Below are positions 1,111 through 58,237 of a stretch of DNA of 64,000 bases, piece by piece (the stretch's first letter is position 1; each line of letters opens with the position of its first letter). Where the stretch lies: positions 997 to 64,996 of the forward strand of contig JAXDPE010000044.1 in assembly GCA_034668565.1 (NCBI GenBank), written 5' to 3'. Origin of the DNA: Sphingomonadales bacterium (GTDB lineage Bacteria > Pseudomonadota > Alphaproteobacteria > Sphingomonadales > Sphingomonadaceae). The position numbers and the translations under genes were made by a program. Below the pieces are notes generated by a model. That model saw only the letters and a program-made list of their open reading frames with translations, was not told the origin of the DNA and made no database searches.

Positions 1111-1557
1111 ATGGTTCGTTACATCGTCGCGGGCGCCTCGGCGCTGCTTCTGATCGCCGCGATATTCTTCATCTGGCGAAGCGGCGCCGAGGCTCAGGAT
1201 GCCATCCCGCCGGCGCCGCCCTCGACGGCTCGAAGCGGGGTCTACGAGACCGGCGCCGGCCCGCGGCTGCGGGCGCCGCCGGCAATGTCGGACCAGAGCC
1301 GGGAAGCGAAGCGCTTCGCCCGGGCCGACCGGAACCGCGACGGCCGGATCACCCTGGAAGAGCAGCTCCAGTCCCGCCGCAAGGCCTTCGCCAAGGCGGA
1401 TCGCGACGGTAACGGAAGCCTCAGCTTCGAGGAATGGACCGCGCCTTCCGCCGAGAAATTCGCCAAGGCCGACAAGGACCGCTCCGGCTGGCTCGACGCC
1501 GCGGAATATGAAGCGAGCCGGCCCAAGCCGAAGGCGAAGCCGAAATGTGCATGCTGA
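1111..1557 (+). CDS. EF-hand domain-containing protein with N-terminal membrane anchor/signal
   Basis: Three Ca-binding-loop-like motifs: DRNRDGRITLEE, DRDGNGSLSFEE, DKDRSGWLDAAE. Hydrophobic N-terminus VAGASALLLIAAIFFIW. Confidence 0.75.
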   Translation: MVRYIVAGASALLLIAAIFFIWRSGAEAQDAIPPAPPSTARSGVYETGAGPRLRAPPAMSDQSREAKRFARADRNRDGRITLEEQLQSRRKAFAKADRDGNGSLSFEEWTAPSAEKFAKADKDRSGWLDAAEYEASRPKPKAKPKCAC

Positions 1558-1582: not shown

Positions 1583-1637
1583 CCTCCCTGCGGCGAAGCC
1601 GCGGGGAGGGGGACCATGCGAAGCATGGTGGAGGGGT
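1583..1637. repeat. left terminal double-hairpin repeat of the DUF559 element
   Basis: CCTCCCTGCGGC-GAA-GCCGCGGGGAGG followed by GGGGGACC-ATGC-GAA-GCAT-GGTGGAGGGG. Its reverse complement recurs at 2009-2059, and related copies lie at 5707-5756 and 5793-5840. Confidence 0.8.
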
Positions 1638-1639
1638 AA

Positions 1640-2005
1640 ATGCCTCGGCCTGTGAACTGGAGCGACAGAAATGCTGCGATCCTTCGGGCGCGAGCGCTGC
1701 GACGGGCACCCACGCCACCGGAATACCGACTCTGGCTCTACCTTCAGCAGAGGCCCGACGGTCTGAAGTTCCGCAAGCAGCATCCGCTGGGGCCATACAC
1801 CCTGGATTTTTACTGCCCGAGCGCAAAACTCGGCATTGAAGGCGATGGCGATAGCCACAGTATGGGCGACAATCCGGCGCGGGACCGGCGTCGCGACGCC
1901 TGGCTGAGCGAGAAGGGACTTCAAGTGCTTCGATACGACGCGGCAGATGTGATGAGGGACGTGGAGTCGGTAGTCACGGCGATTGTTATAGCAGCGCGGC
2001 GCTAA
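1640..2005 (+). CDS. DUF559 (Vsr-like / PD-(D/E)XK-type) endonuclease domain protein
   Basis: 121 aa. [14 protein letters not shown]...[31 protein letters not shown]...[16 protein letters not shown] matches the DUF559 pattern. The ORF fills the space between the inverted repeats exactly. Confidence 0.85.
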
Positions 2006-3365
2006 TTACCCCTCCACCAGGCTTCGCCTGGTCCCCCTCCCCATCTTGCGATGGGGAGGCAAGCCATTGGTCCAGTGCCACTTTGGCTCTGTCGGTATAA
2101 GCCCGTTTCCGGTCCGCCTTCTTCGCCTTGGTGTCGACCGGCGGGAACAGGCCGAAATTGACGTTCATCGGCTGGTAGGTTGCCGCCTCGGCGCCGCCGG
2201 TGATGTGGCCGAGCAGGGCGCCCAGCGCGGTTTCGGGCGGGGGCGGGGCGAGAGTCGCGCCGCCAAGCTCGGCGGCGGCGAAGCGGCCGGCGAGAAGGCC
2301 GATGGCGGCGGATTCGACATAGCCTTCGCAGCCGGTGATCTGGCCGGCGAAGCGGATGTGCGGCGCCGCCTTGAGCCTGAGCGTTCCGTCCAGGAGCTTG
2401 GGCGAATTGATGAAGGTATTGCGGTGGAGGCCGCCGAGCCGGGCGAACTCCGCTTGTTCGAGGCCGGGAATGGTCCGGAACAGCCGGACCTGCTCGGCAT
2501 GCTTCAGCTTGGTCTGGAAACCGACCATGTTCCACAAGGTGCCGAGCGCATTGTCCTGCCTGAGCTGGACCACCGCCCAGGGCCAGTGACCCGTCTTCGG
2601 CTCATCGAGCCCAACGGGCTTCATCGGTCCGTAGCGCAAGGTGTCGAGACCCCGCTGCGCCATCACCTCGATCGGCATGCAGCCTTCGAAATAGGGCGTG
2701 TCCTTTTCCCATTCCTTGAACTCGGTCTTCTCGCCGTCGACCAGCCCCTGGTGGAAGGCGAGATACTGCGCCTTGGTCATCGGGCAATTGATATAGTCCT
2801 TGCCGCCTTTGTCCCAGCGCGCGGCCATCCAGGCGACGTCCATGTCGATCGAGTCCCGGTGGACGATGGGCGCGATCGCGTCGAAGAAGGCGAGGGCGTC
2901 GGAGCCGGTCGCCGCGCCGATCGACTCGGCGAGCTTCATCGCCGTCAGCGGACCGGTGGCGACGATGGTCGCGCCCGAGGCGGGGAGGGCGTCGACCCGC
3001 TCGCGGACCAGCTCGATATTGGGGTGGGCGGCGATCCGCTCCGTGACCGATTGGGCGAAGCCTTCACGGTCGACCGCGAGGGCGGATCCGGCCGGGACCC
3101 GGTGAGCGTCCGCGGCGGCCATGATCAGCGACCCGAGCCTTCGCATTTCGGCATGGATGAGCCCGACGGCATTGTGCTCGGCGTCGTCGGAGCGGAAGCT
3201 GTTCGAGCAGACCAGTTCGGCGAGGCTGTCGCCTTGATGCGCCGGAGTCGTCTCGCCCGATCCGCGCATCTCGGACAGGCGAACCTTCACGCCGGCTTCG
3301 GCGAGCTGCCAGGCCGCTTCGCACCCGGCGAGGCCGCCGCCGATGATATGGACCTGGAACGTCAT
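1986..3365 (-). CDS. trmFO: methylenetetrahydrofolate--tRNA-(uracil-5-)-methyltransferase TrmFO
   Basis: [29 protein letters not shown]-binding N-terminus and full-length TrmFO-like sequence. The last ~25 codons are read through the repeat at 2009-2059. Confidence 0.95.
2009..2059. repeat. right terminal double-hairpin repeat of the DUF559 element (inverted)
   Basis: CCCCTCCACC-AGGC-TTC-GCCT-GGTCCCCC followed by TCCCCATCTTGCGATGGGGAGG. This is the reverse complement of the 1583-1637 architecture with a different inner stem. Confidence 0.8.
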
Positions 3366-5096: not shown

Positions 5097-5792
5097 ATGC
5101 GGACGAGTGCGTGGCTTTTGGTCACGACCAGCCTGGTCTTCGGACTTTCCTACCCCCTGCTGTGGGATCATCTGCCGAAGGCGGCGGACATCGCGGTGAA
5201 AGGGGCGGGGGTCGGCCTGCTCGCGCTTTCGGCGGCGCTGGGCCCGCGAGGCCCGGAGGGACGGCTGCTCGCCTTCGTGATGGCATTGGGAGCGATGGGC
5301 GACGTGTTGATCGAAGTTTCGCTTGCCGCCGGCGCCGCCGCCTTCGCCGCCGGCCATGTCGTCGCCATCCTGCTCTATCGCCGCAACAAGCGGGCGGGCG
5401 TCGGTCCAGCGGATTGGGCGATCGCCGCCATGATGCTGCTCGTTGCGGCGGCCGTGCCATTCCTTCTGCTCGAGGGTCGAGGGGAAGCCCTGCCTTTCAC
5501 CGTCTACGCCCTGCTCCTCGGGGGGATGGCGACGAGCGCCTGGCTAAGCCGTTTCCCGCGCGAGCTGGTCGCGCTCGGCGCGCTGCTGTTCCTCGCCAGC
5601 GACATGCTGATCGCGCTTCGAATGGGGAGCGGCCTCACCGGCCTCGGCGCGCCGATCTGGCTGCTTTACTATGTCGGCCAGCTGCTGATCTTCCTGGGAG
5701 TGACATCCTCCCCATCGAAGACGGGGAGGGGGACCGGGCGGAGCCCGGTGGAGGGGCAATTGGCGCCGATCTTTGAAAGTCCGCGCCGCTAA
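5097..5792 (+). CDS. lysoplasmalogenase (YhhN/TMEM86) family membrane protein
   Basis: Polytopic, 231 aa. GDVLIE...AAGHVVAILLY and LLFLASDMLIAL are YhhN-like. The last ~25 codons are encoded by the repeat at 5707-5792. Confidence 0.7.
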   Translation: MRTSAWLLVTTSLVFGLSYPLLWDHLPKAADIAVKGAGVGLLALSAALGPRGPEGRLLAFVMALGAMGDVLIEVSLAAGAAAFAAGHVVAILLYRRNKRAGVGPADWAIAAMMLLVAAAVPFLLLEGRGEALPFTVYALLLGGMATSAWLSRFPRELVALGALLFLASDMLIALRMGSGLTGLGAPIWLLYYVGQLLIFLGVTSSPSKTGRGTGRSPVEGQLAPIFESPRR

Positions 5793-5840
5793 CCCTCCAT
5801 CACACTTCGTGTGGTCCCCCCATGCTGTCGAATAGGGAGG
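5707..5840. mobile_element. cargo-less (MITE-like) derivative of the DUF559 element
   Basis: The same double-hairpin unit (5707-5756) and its inverted partner (5793-5840) are separated by only ~35 nt. That spacer retains the ...CGCCGCTAA end seen at the DUF559 stop. Confidence 0.7.
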
Positions 5841-5846
5841 ACGGAT

Positions 5847-8630
5847 TCATTCCTGGCTGTCCGGGAGCGTCTCCGGGCCGGTGCCGTCGTCGAGCTGGAC
5901 CGTGTCCGACGCCGCTTCGGGCGGCGCTTCGCCAAGCTCTTCGGCGACCAGCGCCTCGGCTTCGTTCTCGGGCTCCTCATCCTCGTCGATCCGCGCCGCC
6001 GAGACGACATGCTCGTCGTCGGCGACCCGGAAGAGGGTGACTCCCTGGGTGTTGCGCCCAGCGATCCTTATGTCGCCGACGGTGGTCCGGATGAGCTTGG
6101 CCTGATCGGTCACGAGCATCAGCTGCTGGCCGTTATGCGCCGGGAAGCTGGCGACGACGCAGCCGTTGCGGGCCGACGTCTCGATGTTGGTGATGCCTTG
6201 GCCGCCCCGCCCGGTCTGGCGATATTCATAGGCCGAGGTGCGTTTGCCGTAGCCGTTCTCGGTGACGGTGAGGATGAACTCTTCCGCCGCCTCGAACTCG
6301 GCCATGCGTTCCGGCGCGAGCGTCGGCGGATTCTCATTCTCCTTCCACGGCGCGGCGCGAAGATAGGCCTCGCGCTCGTCGGCGCTGGCGCCGAACCCCT
6401 TGAGAATGGACAGCGAAATGACCTCGTCGTCCTTCTGGAGCCGGATCCCGCGGACCCCGGCCGAAGTTCGCGACTGGAACTCGCGGACCTCGGTCGCGGC
6501 GAATCGGATCGCCTTGCCCTGCTTGGTCGCCAGCAGCGCGTCGTCCTCCTCGGTAAGCAGGGAAACGCCGATCAGCCGGTCGGTGGGATCGCCTTCCTCG
6601 TCATTGCCGAAGCGCATCGCTATCTTGCCGGCGGTGGGGACGTTGGTGAAGGCGTCCATCGAATTGCGCCGGACGGTGCCGTGCGCGGTGGCGAACAGGA
6701 TGTGGAGCTTGCCCCACTCGGCCTCGTCCTCGGGCAGCGGAAGAACGGTCGAGATGGTCTCGCCCTCGCCCAAAGGAAGCAGGTTGACCATCGGCCGGCC
6801 GCGGGCCTGCGGCTGGCCTTCCGGAAGCCGCCACACCTTGAGGCGGTAGACCTTGCCGGCCGTGGAGAAGAACAGGACCGGCGTATGGGTCGAGGTCACG
6901 AACAGGTTGGTGACCGCATCCTCGTCCTTGGTGGCCATCCCGGCCCGGCCCTTGCCGCCGCGGCGCTGGGCCCGGAAGGTGGCGAGCGGGGTGCGCTTGA
7001 TGTAGCCGCCGAGAGTCACGGTCACGACCATGTCCTCACGTTCGATCAGGTCCTCGTCCTCGATCCCGTCCCAGGCCGGGGCGATCTCGGTGGTGCGCGG
7101 AACCGCGAACTGCTCGATAATCTCGTCGAACTCGGCGCGCATCACCGCGTAGAGCTTGACCCGGTCGCCCAGGATATCGAGCAATTCGCCGATGGAGACG
7201 GCGAGCGTCTTCAGTTCGCCGGCGATCTCGTCGCGGCCGAGGCCGGTCAGGCGGTGGAGCCGGAGCTCGAGTATAGCCCGCACCTGGGTGTCGGAGAGGC
7301 GGTAGGTGTCGCCCTCGACCTCATGCTCGACCGCCTCCACCAAAGCGATATATTGGGCGATCTCGGCGATCGGCCAGTCGCGCGCGATCAAGGCGGCGCG
7401 GGCCTCGGCGGGAGACGCGGAGCCGCGGATGATCCGGACCACCTCGTCGAGGTTGGTGACGGCGATGACGAGGCCGAGCAGGATGTGGGCGCGGTCGCGG
7501 GCCTTGGCGAGCTCGAACTTGGCGCGGCGGGTGATCACCTCCTCGCGGAAGCGGACGAAGCTCTCGATGATGTCGCGAAGGTTCAAGGTCTCCGGCCGGC
7601 CGCCGCGGATGGCGAGCATGTTGGCCGGGAAGCTCGACTGGGCCGGGGTATGGCGCCAGAGCTGGTTGAGGACGACGTCGGGGGTCGCGTCGCGCTTGAG
7701 GTCGATGACGACCCGGACGCCCTCCCGGTTCGATTCGTCCCGGATGTCGGAGACGCCCTCGATGCGCTTGTCCTTGGCGGCCTCGGCGATCCGCTCGACC
7801 AGCGTGTTCTTGCCGACCTGGTAGGGGATGGAGGTGAGCACGATCGAGCGGCGGTCGCCGCGGCCTTCCTCGACTTCGTGGCGGGCCCGCATGATGATCG
7901 AGCCTCGGCCGGTATGATAGGCGCTGCGGGCGCCGGCCTGGCCGAGGATGAGCGGGGCGGTCGGGAAATCCGGTCCCGGGATGATCTCCATCAGCTGCTC
8001 GATGGTGATCGCGGGATCGTCCATATAGGCTTTGCAGGCGGCGACCACTTCGCCGAGATTGTGGGGCGGAATGTTGGTCGCCATTCCGACCGCGATCCCG
8101 CCCGCGCCGTTGACCAGCAGATTGGGGAAGCGCGCCGGAAGCACCTGAGGCTCCATCCGCGAGCCGTCGTAATTGGGCGTGAAGTCGACCGTGTCCTTGT
8201 CGAGGTCTTCGAGCAGGGTCATCGCGACCTTGGCGAGCCGCGCCTCGGTGTAGCGCATCGACGCGGGAGGATCGGGATCCATCGATCCGAAATTGCCTTG
8301 GCCGTCGATCAGCATCACCCGCATCGACCAGTCCTGGGCCAGGCGGGCGAGGGCGTCGTAGATCGCGCTGTCGCCGTGCGGGTGGTAATTGCCCATGACG
8401 TCGCCGACGATCTTGGCGCATTTGCGATAGGCGCGGCCGGGGACGAAGCCGCCTTCCTGGCAGGCGTAGAGGATCCGGCGGTGGACCGGCTTCAGGCCGT
8501 CGCGAACGTCTGGGAGGGCTCGGGCGACGATCACCGACATCGCATAATCGAGGTAGGAGGTCTTCATCTCCTCGACGATCTGGACCGGGGAAATATCGTG
8601 GCTGTCGATGGTCGGCGGGGCGCTGGCCAA
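5847..8630 (-). CDS. gyrA: DNA gyrase subunit A
   Basis: 927 aa. [29 protein letters not shown], the AAMRYTE-equivalent SMRYTEARL, and a C-terminal beta-pinwheel region. TTG start at 8628-8630. Confidence 0.97.
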
Positions 8631-13946: not shown

Positions 13947-14021
13947 GGGCCTGTAGCTCAATGGTAGAGCCGGCCGCTCATAACGGCTAGGTTGGGGGTT
14001 CGAATCCTCCCGGGCCCACCA
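13947..14021 (+). tRNA. tRNA-Met (anticodon CAT; elongator-like, tRNA-Ile2 not excluded)
   Basis: GGGCCTGTAGCTCAATGGTAGAGC...CTCATAA...GGGGGTTCGAATCCTCCCGGGCCCACCA folds as a cloverleaf. CCA is encoded and initiator-specific features are absent. Confidence 0.9.
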
Positions 14022-14120: not shown

Positions 14121-14197
<77 letters not shown>

Positions 14198-51093: not shown

Positions 51094-51180
51094 GGACAGG
51101 TGGCCGAGTGGTTTAAGGCAGCGGTCTTGAAAACCGCCGTGGGTTCACGCCCACCGTGGGTTCGAATCCCACCCTGTCCG
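51094..51180 (+). tRNA. tRNA-Ser (anticodon TGA)
   Basis: GGACAGGTGGCCGAGTGGTTTAAGGCAGCGGTCTTGAAAACCGCC + long variable arm + GGGTTCGAATCCCACCCTGTCCG. CCA is not encoded. Confidence 0.9.
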
Positions 51181-57891: not shown

Positions 57892-58011
57892 GTCGCTGAT
57901 TTCCTTGCGATGTGGCTGGTTCCGACCAGCCTCGAGCGAAGTCGAATGCGGGCCTGTACCCAATGCGCCCGAATTTGACAAGGCGACGCGCCGCCGACTA
58001 ACCCTGCGCCC

Positions 58012-58237
58012 AGCGAAGGTGCCCTTCACGCCGAAGCTACGGCGGGGGAAGGGTGAAAAGGGAAGCCGGCGGAAATCCGGCGCTGTGCCCGCAACTGTGA
58101 ACGGCCCCGGCCGCAAGTCAGGAACCTGCCTTCGCCGTCGTCCGCATCCGGCCGGGACCAGCCGAAATGCGTGGCGTCGGGGACGGACGATCCGGCCGCG
58201 ATTCCTCCGAGACGACAAATCGTCGTTGAAAGGAGGA
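58012..58237 (+). promoter_or_regulatory. cobalamin (AdoCbl) riboswitch with RBS-sequestering expression platform
   Basis: GGTGCC...AAGGGAAGCCGGCGGAAATCCGGCGCTGTGCCCGCAACTGTGAA...GTCAGGAACCTGCC matches the B12-box core. TCCTCC (58203-58208) can pair with the SD GGAGGA (58232-58237). Confidence 0.85.

Follow-up and report, generated by a model that had tools for sequence, protein, structure and literature searches.

Two repeat systems described in bacteria come closest to the element reported here, a 477-bp unit at positions 1583-2059 of the 64,000-nucleotide stretch of Sphingomonadales DNA that was analysed (the window), in which a gene for a DUF559 endonuclease is framed by a pair of inverted, hairpin-forming repeats. 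In the REPIN-RAYT systems, the short structured repeats are REP palindromes with a GTAG head; they are scattered over the genome singly or as inverted doublets, and one protein gene per family, coding for an HUH/Y1 transposase, is located between or beside copies of its own family. RAYTs are typically present in one copy per genome (PMC5581495). The BoxC/PIT/TM motifs are G/C-rich and intergenic, and are composed of a C-block, a loop, a G-block, a second loop and a mirror-image G-block; they occur as single units and as inverted pairs in tens of copies per genome. In their work on these motifs, Holder et al. (2015; PMC4666352) found no mobility gene near them and gave no cognate protein.

The unit in the window shares features with both systems. 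We consider it to be one copy of a nuclease-repeat partnership that is analogous to REPIN-RAYT, a reading to which we assign a probability of roughly 50%. The evidence comes from the anatomy of the unit, the dispersal of the repeat, the association and co-variation of gene and repeat, signs of purifying selection and the polymorphism of the site that it occupies. The unit is laid out as follows:

1583..1609, forward strand: left unit, hairpin A, CCTCCCTGCGGC-GAA-GCCGCGGGGAGG, with one T.G wobble; its C-block CCTCCCT and G-block GGGGAGG are blocks 1 and 2
1613..1629, forward strand: left unit, hairpin B, ACCATGC-GAA-GCATGGT, a C-GNA-G mini-hairpin standing in for loop 2
1630..1636, forward strand: left unit, mirror G-block GGAGGGG (block 3)
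1640..2005, forward strand: DUF559 open reading frame (ORF), 121 amino acids, Vsr-like PD-(D/E)XK fold, stop codon at 2003-2005
2006..2059, reverse strand: right unit, an inverted copy, comprising TTA, CCCCTCC, hairpin B' ACCAGGC-TTC-GCCTGGT and hairpin A' CCTCCCCATC-TTGC-GATGGGGAGG

In the left unit, GGG links hairpin A to hairpin B, and the TAA that follows the GGAGGGG tail (block plus TAA, 1630..1639) still forms part of the inverted repeat, the ATG coming next at 1640. The DUF559 ORF starts 3 nt past the G-rich tail and stops 3 nt short of CCCCTCC, and over the 37 nt of the arms 1603-1639 and 2006-2042 complementarity is 95%. An earlier sequence-only reading of the window had described a DUF559 gene framed precisely by inverted double-hairpin repeats, the right-hand one (2009-2059) having the reverse-complement architecture with an inner stem of AGGC/GCCT; the framing is confirmed by the sequence, the arm complementarity and the Pfam match given below, and the right-hand stem can be read directly in the sequence. 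The cassette is compact: the GGAGG of block 3 is Shine-Dalgarno-like and lies 4-8 nt 5' of the DUF559 ATG, so that block 3 supplies the Shine-Dalgarno sequence, and the ORF occupies the whole interior. Orthologs share the ...GGTGGAGGGGTA[A/G]ATG context at the DUF559 start, and in several relatives the DUF559 ORF runs on into the far repeat. The window, which has a G+C content of 67% and whose close homologs point to a relative of Allosphingosinicella as its source, holds 4 matches to the core repeat pattern in its 64 kb (1608, 2009, 5728 and 5792), the chance expectation being 0.28. Folding of single-stranded DNA, a calculation that covers hairpins only and not a triplex, returned two hairpins in each flanking unit (z = -6.1 for the left and -5.7 for the right), with 0 of 200 shuffles as good. 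The inner stems vary among copies (ATGC/GCAT, AGGC/GCCT, GGGC/GCCC, ACAC/GTGT) but remain complementary.

The repeat is more than a pair of hairpins. Since the tail (GGAGGGG) mirrors the G-arm of hairpin A (GGGGAGG), each unit consists of a pyrimidine block, a loop, a purine block, a loop and a mirror purine block. Judged from its sequence, the repeat has the class II intrastrand-triplex design of the E. coli BoxC/PIT/TM_ECO motifs, with loop 2 expanded into hairpin B. In the window family this loop is a hairpin of 20-26 nt, in contrast to the 1-6 nt of BoxC/PIT/TM_ECO and outside the 1-6 nt of the ITxF loop definition; it is short in other families that flank DUF559 genes. A strict three-block finder matched the window at 2009-2059 and 5707-5756 and gave 0 matches in 20 shuffled windows, and strict matches were present at gene ends in 13 of 16 DUF559 loci. 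In every family, the third block mirrors the position of the A or T interruption of the purine block (GGGGAGGGG/GGGGGTGGGG, GGGAGGGG/GGGGAGGG, GGGGGAGG/GGAGGGGG and C5/G5/G5), a correspondence that provides cross-family covariation for the three-block design. Third-block covariation within family 1 was set aside, its variation being too low and the loose pattern noisy, and the cross-family comparison was used in its place.

Repeat statistics were compiled for 217 distinct units pooled from the loci collected (numbered with the prefix L). The loop of hairpin B is C-GNA-G in 183 units (84%); GNA mini-hairpins of the GCGAAGC type are unusually stable in DNA. In the variable inner stem of hairpin B, 92% of the pairs are Watson-Crick, and the non-Watson-Crick stem pairs comprise 89 G.T versus 15 A.C when counted on the strand on which hairpin A precedes hairpin B. 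This bias argues for selection on the fold of one specific single strand and not on a duplex palindrome, and, taken with the C-GNA-G loop, it indicates selection for a single-stranded fold. Four G-tracts with short loops are also seen on the G-rich strand of most families, e.g. GGGGAGGGGCCGGGGGTGGGG, as in families 2 and 3, Qipengyuania and Azospirillum TSH58 (L228 509-545, L230 528-566, L219 498-531 and L222 493-529), and this strand could fold into a G-quadruplex instead of the hairpin or triplex.

The repeat is dispersed well beyond the window. A genome scan with the exact pattern, for which one genome per species was used, returned at least 120 blocks of 8 kb, located in Sphingomonadales, Caulobacterales, Hyphomicrobiales and a few Firmicutes metagenome-assembled genomes (MAGs). 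A relaxed scan identified at least 41 cargo-less inverted doublets (40 from the collected blocks, 1 from the window), whose spacers measure 19-95 bp, together with many solo units, and a scan of IMG/VR identified at least 187 units and at least 18 doublets on at least 120 contigs. Several Allosphingosinicella doublets at different loci have a common spacer of ~20 bp, which suggests that doublets multiply as units. The Firmicutes MAG loci (L026, L047, L058, L076, L077 and L116) contain genuine composite-motif units with TGAAA as the hairpin A loop, on contigs of 47-64% GC; contamination is thus an unlikely source of these matches, and the composite motif appears to be conserved at the sequence level across phyla. 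Units are often located at gene ends, and most are without a following T-run.

Some further features of the dispersed units were noted. The repeat is common on viral-classified contigs (IMG/VR loci L232-L351), which may be true phage DNA or host flanks of prophages, and DUF559 abuts units in three of these loci (L254, L295 and L327). Units of Hyphomicrobiales and Phenylobacterium (L029, L040, L053, L063, L084, L094, L104 and L119) tend to be paired head-to-head (-/+), with the hairpin A ends facing, which is the opposite of the +/- doublets of Sphingomonadales. The possibility that cargo-less doublets are internally deleted DUF559 elements was rejected: in a shuffle-controlled local alignment of 43 spacers with 20 cassettes, the maximal z score was 2.6. 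The spacer at 5757-5791 and those of 57 bp in L028 and L025 had resembled DUF559 gene ends on visual inspection, a resemblance for which the alignment gave no support.

Links emerge between the repeat and DUF559 genes. All close homologs examined (six proteins with 63-86% amino acid identity) are encoded at the same site, in the order EF-hand gene, DUF559 and convergent trmFO, with both repeat units kept, and the stem changes in these syntenic orthologs are compensatory. The two repeat-selected samples, from the genome scan and IMG/VR (~1.9 Mb in ~240 loci chosen by pattern), contain 9 DUF559 genes, of which 6 adjoin window-family units at other genomic sites (L042, L098, L123, L254, L295 and L327); among the matches listed, no gene other than DUF559 was framed by units in the ~240 loci. 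A seventh of these genes, that of L022, encodes a product with 40% identity and is enclosed by another motif, CCTCTCCC..GGGAGAGG..GGTGAGGGG. In a plasmid collection (PLSDB), 15 DUF559 genes were retrieved by tblastn, and 14 of them carry lineage-specific three-block motifs on one or both sides. These 14 genes come from Novosphingobium, Sphingobium, Sphingomonas (three), Qipengyuania, Azospirillum (two), Deinococcus, Pseudanabaena, Sinorhizobium, Neisseria, Photobacterium and E. coli. The remaining gene, that of Synechocystis B12, has no flanking inverted repeat and a single strict three-block match near the 3' end of its ORF.

Another example of this link is that of S. parapaucimobilis YK209, for which the collection files more than 10 "plasmids" of up to 880 kb (NZ_CP155749-CP155761) that are effectively pieces of the chromosome; the count for this strain (loci L220, L228 and L230) covers at least 3.5 Mb, a near-whole genome. 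YK209 was found to possess three DUF559 paralogs, each with a different repeat family: the paralog between pntA and pntB is framed by the window family, that between sufB and sufC by a second family, and that before dnaG is flanked by two doublets of a third family. These families occupy at least 73, 115 and 99 places, respectively. All DUF559 proteins that the window family flanks group in one clade of a neighbour-joining tree, and the trmFO-site genes are a subclade of it. Repeat family and DUF559 clade thus co-vary in the sequences compared, and the pairing of gene and repeat appears to be general, with about one gene per ~100 repeat copies. The sequence-only reading had suggested that DUF559 may mobilise or maintain this repeat family, and it is supported in part: flanking repeats, whose absence from DUF559 relatives would have told against it, were found in all syntenic orthologs examined, at six other loci and at 14 of the 15 plasmid-collection genes; given the co-variation of family and clade, a distribution of the repeats independent of DUF559 is not borne out. 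The REPIN/RAYT-like layout that it had recognized is real, general and maintained at a long-kept site, whereas the repeats fit BoxC/PIT/TM better than REP and the enzyme is unrelated to RAYT. In an incomplete literature search, no published description of a link between DUF559 and these repeats was found.

The protein itself matches the Pfam family DUF559 (PF04480) with 87.9 bits (cut-off, 20.6; E value, 4.9e-25; 102 of 109 profile positions), and the Pfam search of the ORF returned no other family besides MTES_1575, which was below its cut-off, and no transposase domain. Its AlphaFold (AF2) model has a predicted local distance difference test (pLDDT) value of 86.5. Foldseek ranked 3HRL first (template modelling [TM] score, 0.86; sequence match, 1.2e-12), followed by 3R3P, the catalytic domain of I-Bth0305I (TM score, 0.74), by restriction enzymes specific for 5-hydroxymethylcytosine and, more weakly, by Vsr (1VSR). 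No variation in E28, D56, E67 and D69 was seen among 30 relatives, and H73 is conserved in at least 90% of them, and these residues are also kept across clades; their spacing agrees with that of E73/D102/D115/H119 proposed for the Caulobacter DUF559 protein VsrA (PMC12907096), onto which they can be provisionally mapped. VsrA was shown to cause an SOS response and DNA damage in a cytosine-methyltransferase mutant, its gene not being linked to the methyltransferase (PMC12907096), which suggests that at least some DUF559 members can act as nucleases in cells. All DUF559 copies are intact, and the pairwise ratios of nonsynonymous to synonymous substitution (dN/dS) of about 0.04-0.19, which are rough values as dS is saturated, are signs of purifying selection.

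The link extends to E. coli. E. coli K-12 has a single DUF559 gene, ycjD, whose 3' end lies inside BoxC-like sequence (L224 890-1140 and L231 3041-3420), so that a BoxC family abuts a DUF559 gene here as well, and TM_ECO no. 9 (1,351,204-1,351,239; PMC4666352) is located in the fabI-ycjD spacer, 168 bp downstream of ycjD. Of 5426 E. coli genomes, 5419 contain a BoxC-type repeat, the median number of places per genome being 18. With respect to the earlier description of BoxC/PIT, the DUF559 link is the new element. More tentatively, the DUF559 proteins might be the missing cognate enzymes of BoxC/PIT/TM repeats across bacteria, with YcjD-BoxC as the model pair. The two would then make up a second class of nested replicator, mechanistically unrelated to REPIN-RAYT, in which a Vsr-fold nuclease recognizes a non-B fold (hairpin or triplex, possibly via G.T pairs) and drives the copying or homogenization of repeats; we regard this wider proposal as possible, and hold it with less than even confidence.

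Information on the dynamics of the cassette is available for its site at the 3' end of trmFO, which is bounded by two genes:

1111..1557, forward strand: EF-hand-like gene, the upstream context; in most relatives only 5-40 bp, the empty site, separate it from the trmFO stop
1986..3365, reverse strand: trmFO, convergent; conserved TrmFO homology stops near 2065

The last ~25 codons of trmFO in the window come from the right repeat and the 3' end of DUF559. Eighty metagenomic trmFO loci with a TrmFO identity of 72-87% by tblastn were compared; most of them show the synteny of trmFO and the EF-hand gene with 5-40 bp in between, and ~70 are empty. The DUF559 element is present in 3 of the 80, one locus (L191) has a doublet without a gene at this site, and another (L138, 5310-5350) has a lone hairpin-A-like stem. 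Occupied, empty and doublet-only states of the trmFO site thus exist, and the earlier reading, which an absence of polymorphic sites would have refuted, is not contradicted in this respect. A hairpin-A-like stem, CCTCCCC..GGGGAGG, was seen alone at the otherwise empty site of some relatives, others having a full unit or nothing (L138 and L194 ~7800-7830 versus L177 2107-2155 versus L178); such a stem may either seed the insertion of units or result from decay.

The loci L214 and L185 are 95-96% identical over 7.5 kb and differ in that the former has a 479-bp element where the latter has 27 bp, which encode the ancestral TrmFO tail common to other empty relatives. L214 and L155, in turn, are 81% identical through both flanks and the element. 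As element and flanks have diverged together, the element is old in that clade, yet it is polymorphic at the species level; this joint divergence, along with the conserved synteny, rules out a recent insertion at the trmFO locus. In a TrmFO tree, the occupied loci form one main clade, which includes the window, and scattered lineages among empty ones. Among the trmFO-site loci (the window, L001-L015, L136, L155 and L214), DUF559 identity reaches a plateau of about 58-69%, mostly near 60-65%, whatever the TrmFO identity (77-91%), which suggests either that hosts have exchanged old cassette lineages or that evolution has been very fast. The overall pattern would fit vertical descent with recombinational exchange or loss of the cassette, and a homing-type element would look alike. 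The flanks AAT/CC...GG/ATT were considered as a target-site duplication and dismissed: the palindrome continues there, and occupied/empty pairs show the replacement of a short segment.

That DUF559 acts on the repeats, and the manner in which it does so, we infer from this body of data. Strand-specific folding repeats of ~55 nt would be dispersed as solo units and inverted doublets, and one doublet per family would enclose the gene for the Vsr-fold endonuclease, the repeat's third block serving as its ribosome-binding site. DUF559 would recognize its cognate repeat, either folded or as a palindromic duplex, and nick or cut it, and host repair synthesis and recombination would then copy or homogenize repeat units and cassette. 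The cassette at the 3' end of trmFO would be an old resident, maintained by selection, that related genomes exchange or lose through recombination. A RAYT-like role is judged the most likely one because the gene is single-copy among ~100 potential sites, long-lived, intact and co-varying with its family. Like the REPIN-RAYT pairs, the element described here has short structured repeats in the form of singlets and inverted doublets; one protein gene per family, lying between or beside copies of that family, with several pairs coexisting in YK209; and a single-copy gene with signs of purifying selection that has long been at one site (synteny down to 63% amino acid identity). It differs in that DUF559 is a Vsr-fold PD-(D/E)XK nuclease of ~120 amino acids with no obvious strand-transfer chemistry, and not an HUH/Y1 transposase; in that its repeat is a three-block motif with a GNA mini-hairpin, and not a REP palindrome; and in that the gene is present or absent between close relatives. 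Since the enzyme is not an HUH tyrosine transposase of the IS200/IS605 type, the system is an analogue of REPIN-RAYT and not a member.

Several points weigh against this interpretation. A PD-(D/E)XK nuclease cannot itself carry out strand transfer, so that the copying step would be the host's and is hypothetical. In L214/L185 the 27 bp were replaced, which is not a clean insertion; no target-site duplication was seen in the comparisons of occupied with empty sites (L214/L185 and L177/L178), and no recent transposition event was caught in the loci compared. The 43 doublet spacers showed no DUF559 trace above the null when aligned with the 20 cassettes, so the doublets are not demonstrably cassette-derived. 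In E. coli, Photobacterium, Azospirillum TSH58 and Sinorhizobium, the repeat arrangement is one-sided. To these points can be added the roughness of the dN/dS values and the link of VsrA to a cytosine methyltransferase, which is experimentally supported (PMC12907096). A comparison with miniature inverted-repeat transposable elements (MITEs) and their parent insertion sequences leads in both directions: terminal inverted repeats of ~55 bp, abundant cargo-less and rare cargo-bearing copies, and an ORF that fills the interior and uses repeat signals are common to both, whereas the DUF559 element is without a transposase family or a target-site duplication, and its cargo-less spacers are unrelated to the gene.

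The main rival to a RAYT-like role, equally drawn from geometry, is a homing cassette. DUF559 would cut empty alleles or cargo-less doublets and be copied in by recombination via the ~55-bp arms or the flanking genes; the repeats would multiply by other means, and DUF559 would be a hitch-hiker. The closest characterized structural relative of DUF559 is indeed the catalytic domain of I-Bth0305I (PMC3239194), and the cassette shares with this EDxHD enzyme and with free-standing homing genes a Vsr-like catalytic fold, a small, selfish-looking gene at a fixed site by a conserved gene and presence/absence polymorphism, the last being evident at one site between the 95%-identical genomes of L214 and L185. 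Homing would also account for trmFO-site DUF559 genes that form one clade and yet are found in two distant TrmFO clades among empty relatives, for the plateau of DUF559 divergence regardless of host divergence, as cassette exchange predicts, and for insertions between the operon genes sufB and sufC and pntA and pntB; a palindromic doublet would suit a dimeric nuclease. However, a homing gene should spread, whereas there is one DUF559 gene per family in YK209 despite ~70-120 landing sites, and one ycjD versus ~18-23 BoxC copies in E. coli. The cassette is framed by dispersed repeats, is without intron or intein, and encodes a single domain of 121 amino acids that lacks the extra DNA-binding domains of I-Bth0305I. 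Moreover, L214 and L185 differ by repeats and gene as one block, not by a gene inside a pre-existing doublet, and all copies are intact, with no sign of the decay phase of a homing cycle. Polymorphism and structural relative thus speak for homing, and the single-copy state and block-wise polymorphism against it; we consider it unlikely, though a serious contender.

The other alternatives fit the data poorly. DUF559 might be a housekeeping mismatch-repair nuclease, namely a T:G endonuclease of the very-short-patch (VSP) type that serves a cytosine methyltransferase encoded elsewhere, the repeats being incidental. It belongs to the superfamily of Vsr and VsrA and shares the conserved acidic and histidine residues of their catalytic sites, the locus is vertically kept, and the hairpin stems are rich in G.T pairs, the Vsr substrate. 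Unlike Vsr, its gene is unlinked to a methyltransferase, none being present in the neighbourhood of the cassette, although this does not exclude a Vsr function, as the linkage is absent also for Caulobacter VsrA, which nevertheless elicits the SOS response described above. A housekeeping role leaves unexplained why each of the three YK209 paralogs is embedded on both sides in a different family, for which, at a density of ~1 unit per 13 kb, the rough chance per gene is <1e-4, and why the same pattern recurs across phyla; the gene is also dispensable in most relatives, ~70 close ones being without it at the trmFO site. This role is therefore improbable.

Slightly less probable still is that the repeats are cis-regulatory or insulating structures for a toxic gene, in which hairpins terminate transcription arriving from the convergent neighbours and sequester the ribosome-binding site, or general REP-like modules for termination or mRNA stabilization. 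The GGAGG of block 3 could indeed pair with block 1 at its CCTCC, the first unit encountered by each strand is a "sense" unit, which carries the G.U-tolerant side, and units are often at gene ends. Such a function would explain neither why DUF559 is the only framed gene among the matches listed in the ~240 loci nor why each paralog has its own family; most units are not followed by a T-run, and earlier work cited in PMC4666352 found the E. coli motif to be without promoter or terminator activity. Finally, an invertible switch, in which the DUF559 segment would undergo programmed inversion by way of the inverted repeats, is very improbable: DUF559 is enriched 14-fold among predicted targets of programmed inversion (PMC9881135), but this is expected as a by-product of flanking inverted repeats alone, the orientation relative to trmFO is the same in all ~20 occupied trmFO-site loci, and no recombinase gene was found near the cassette.

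The neighbours of the cassette are pdh genes, an SQS_PSY gene, the EF-hand gene, trmFO, a YhhN gene and gyrA. The cargo-less repeat pair at 5707-5840, to which the sequence-only reading had also drawn attention, is real, with a degraded right arm, and an orthologous copy of it is present in a relative (L001). It consists of the following parts:

5707..5756, forward strand: left unit, a strict three-block motif
5757..5791, no strand: spacer of 35 bp, with no significant similarity to DUF559 genes (z = -0.2)
5792..5840, reverse strand: right unit, degenerate, with 2 core mismatches and an eroded hairpin A (z = -1.2)

The frames of trmFO (1986-2064) and of the YhhN-family gene upstream of the cargo-less pair (5700-5792) read into repeats and thereby acquire repeat-encoded C-terminal tails, one of which is ..SSPSKTGRGTGRSPVEGQLAPIFESPRR. 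These tails are likely either annotation artefacts or real but recent tail replacements. For annotation, this means that the repeats tack spurious C-terminal tails onto trmFO and YhhN-family ORFs and, in relatives, onto DUF559 itself. A known RNA family was discarded as the identity of the repeat, as the only matches in the window at the Rfam gathering threshold are three tRNA genes (13947-14018, 14121-14194 and 51094-51180) and a cobalamin riboswitch (58000-58147), which are unrelated to the cassette.

BoxC/PIT/TM repeats have been known since the 1990s, are present in hundreds of genomes and have been associated with genome instability, and the DUF559 family, for which a structure has been solved (3HRL), is very large, most of its members having no assigned role. 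If true, the cross-phylum pairing described here would provide a candidate partner for both. It would also mean that the idea behind REPIN-RAYT, that of a single-copy nuclease gene with dependent repeats, reaches a different enzyme fold and a different DNA structure, and the pairing is directly testable in E. coli K-12.

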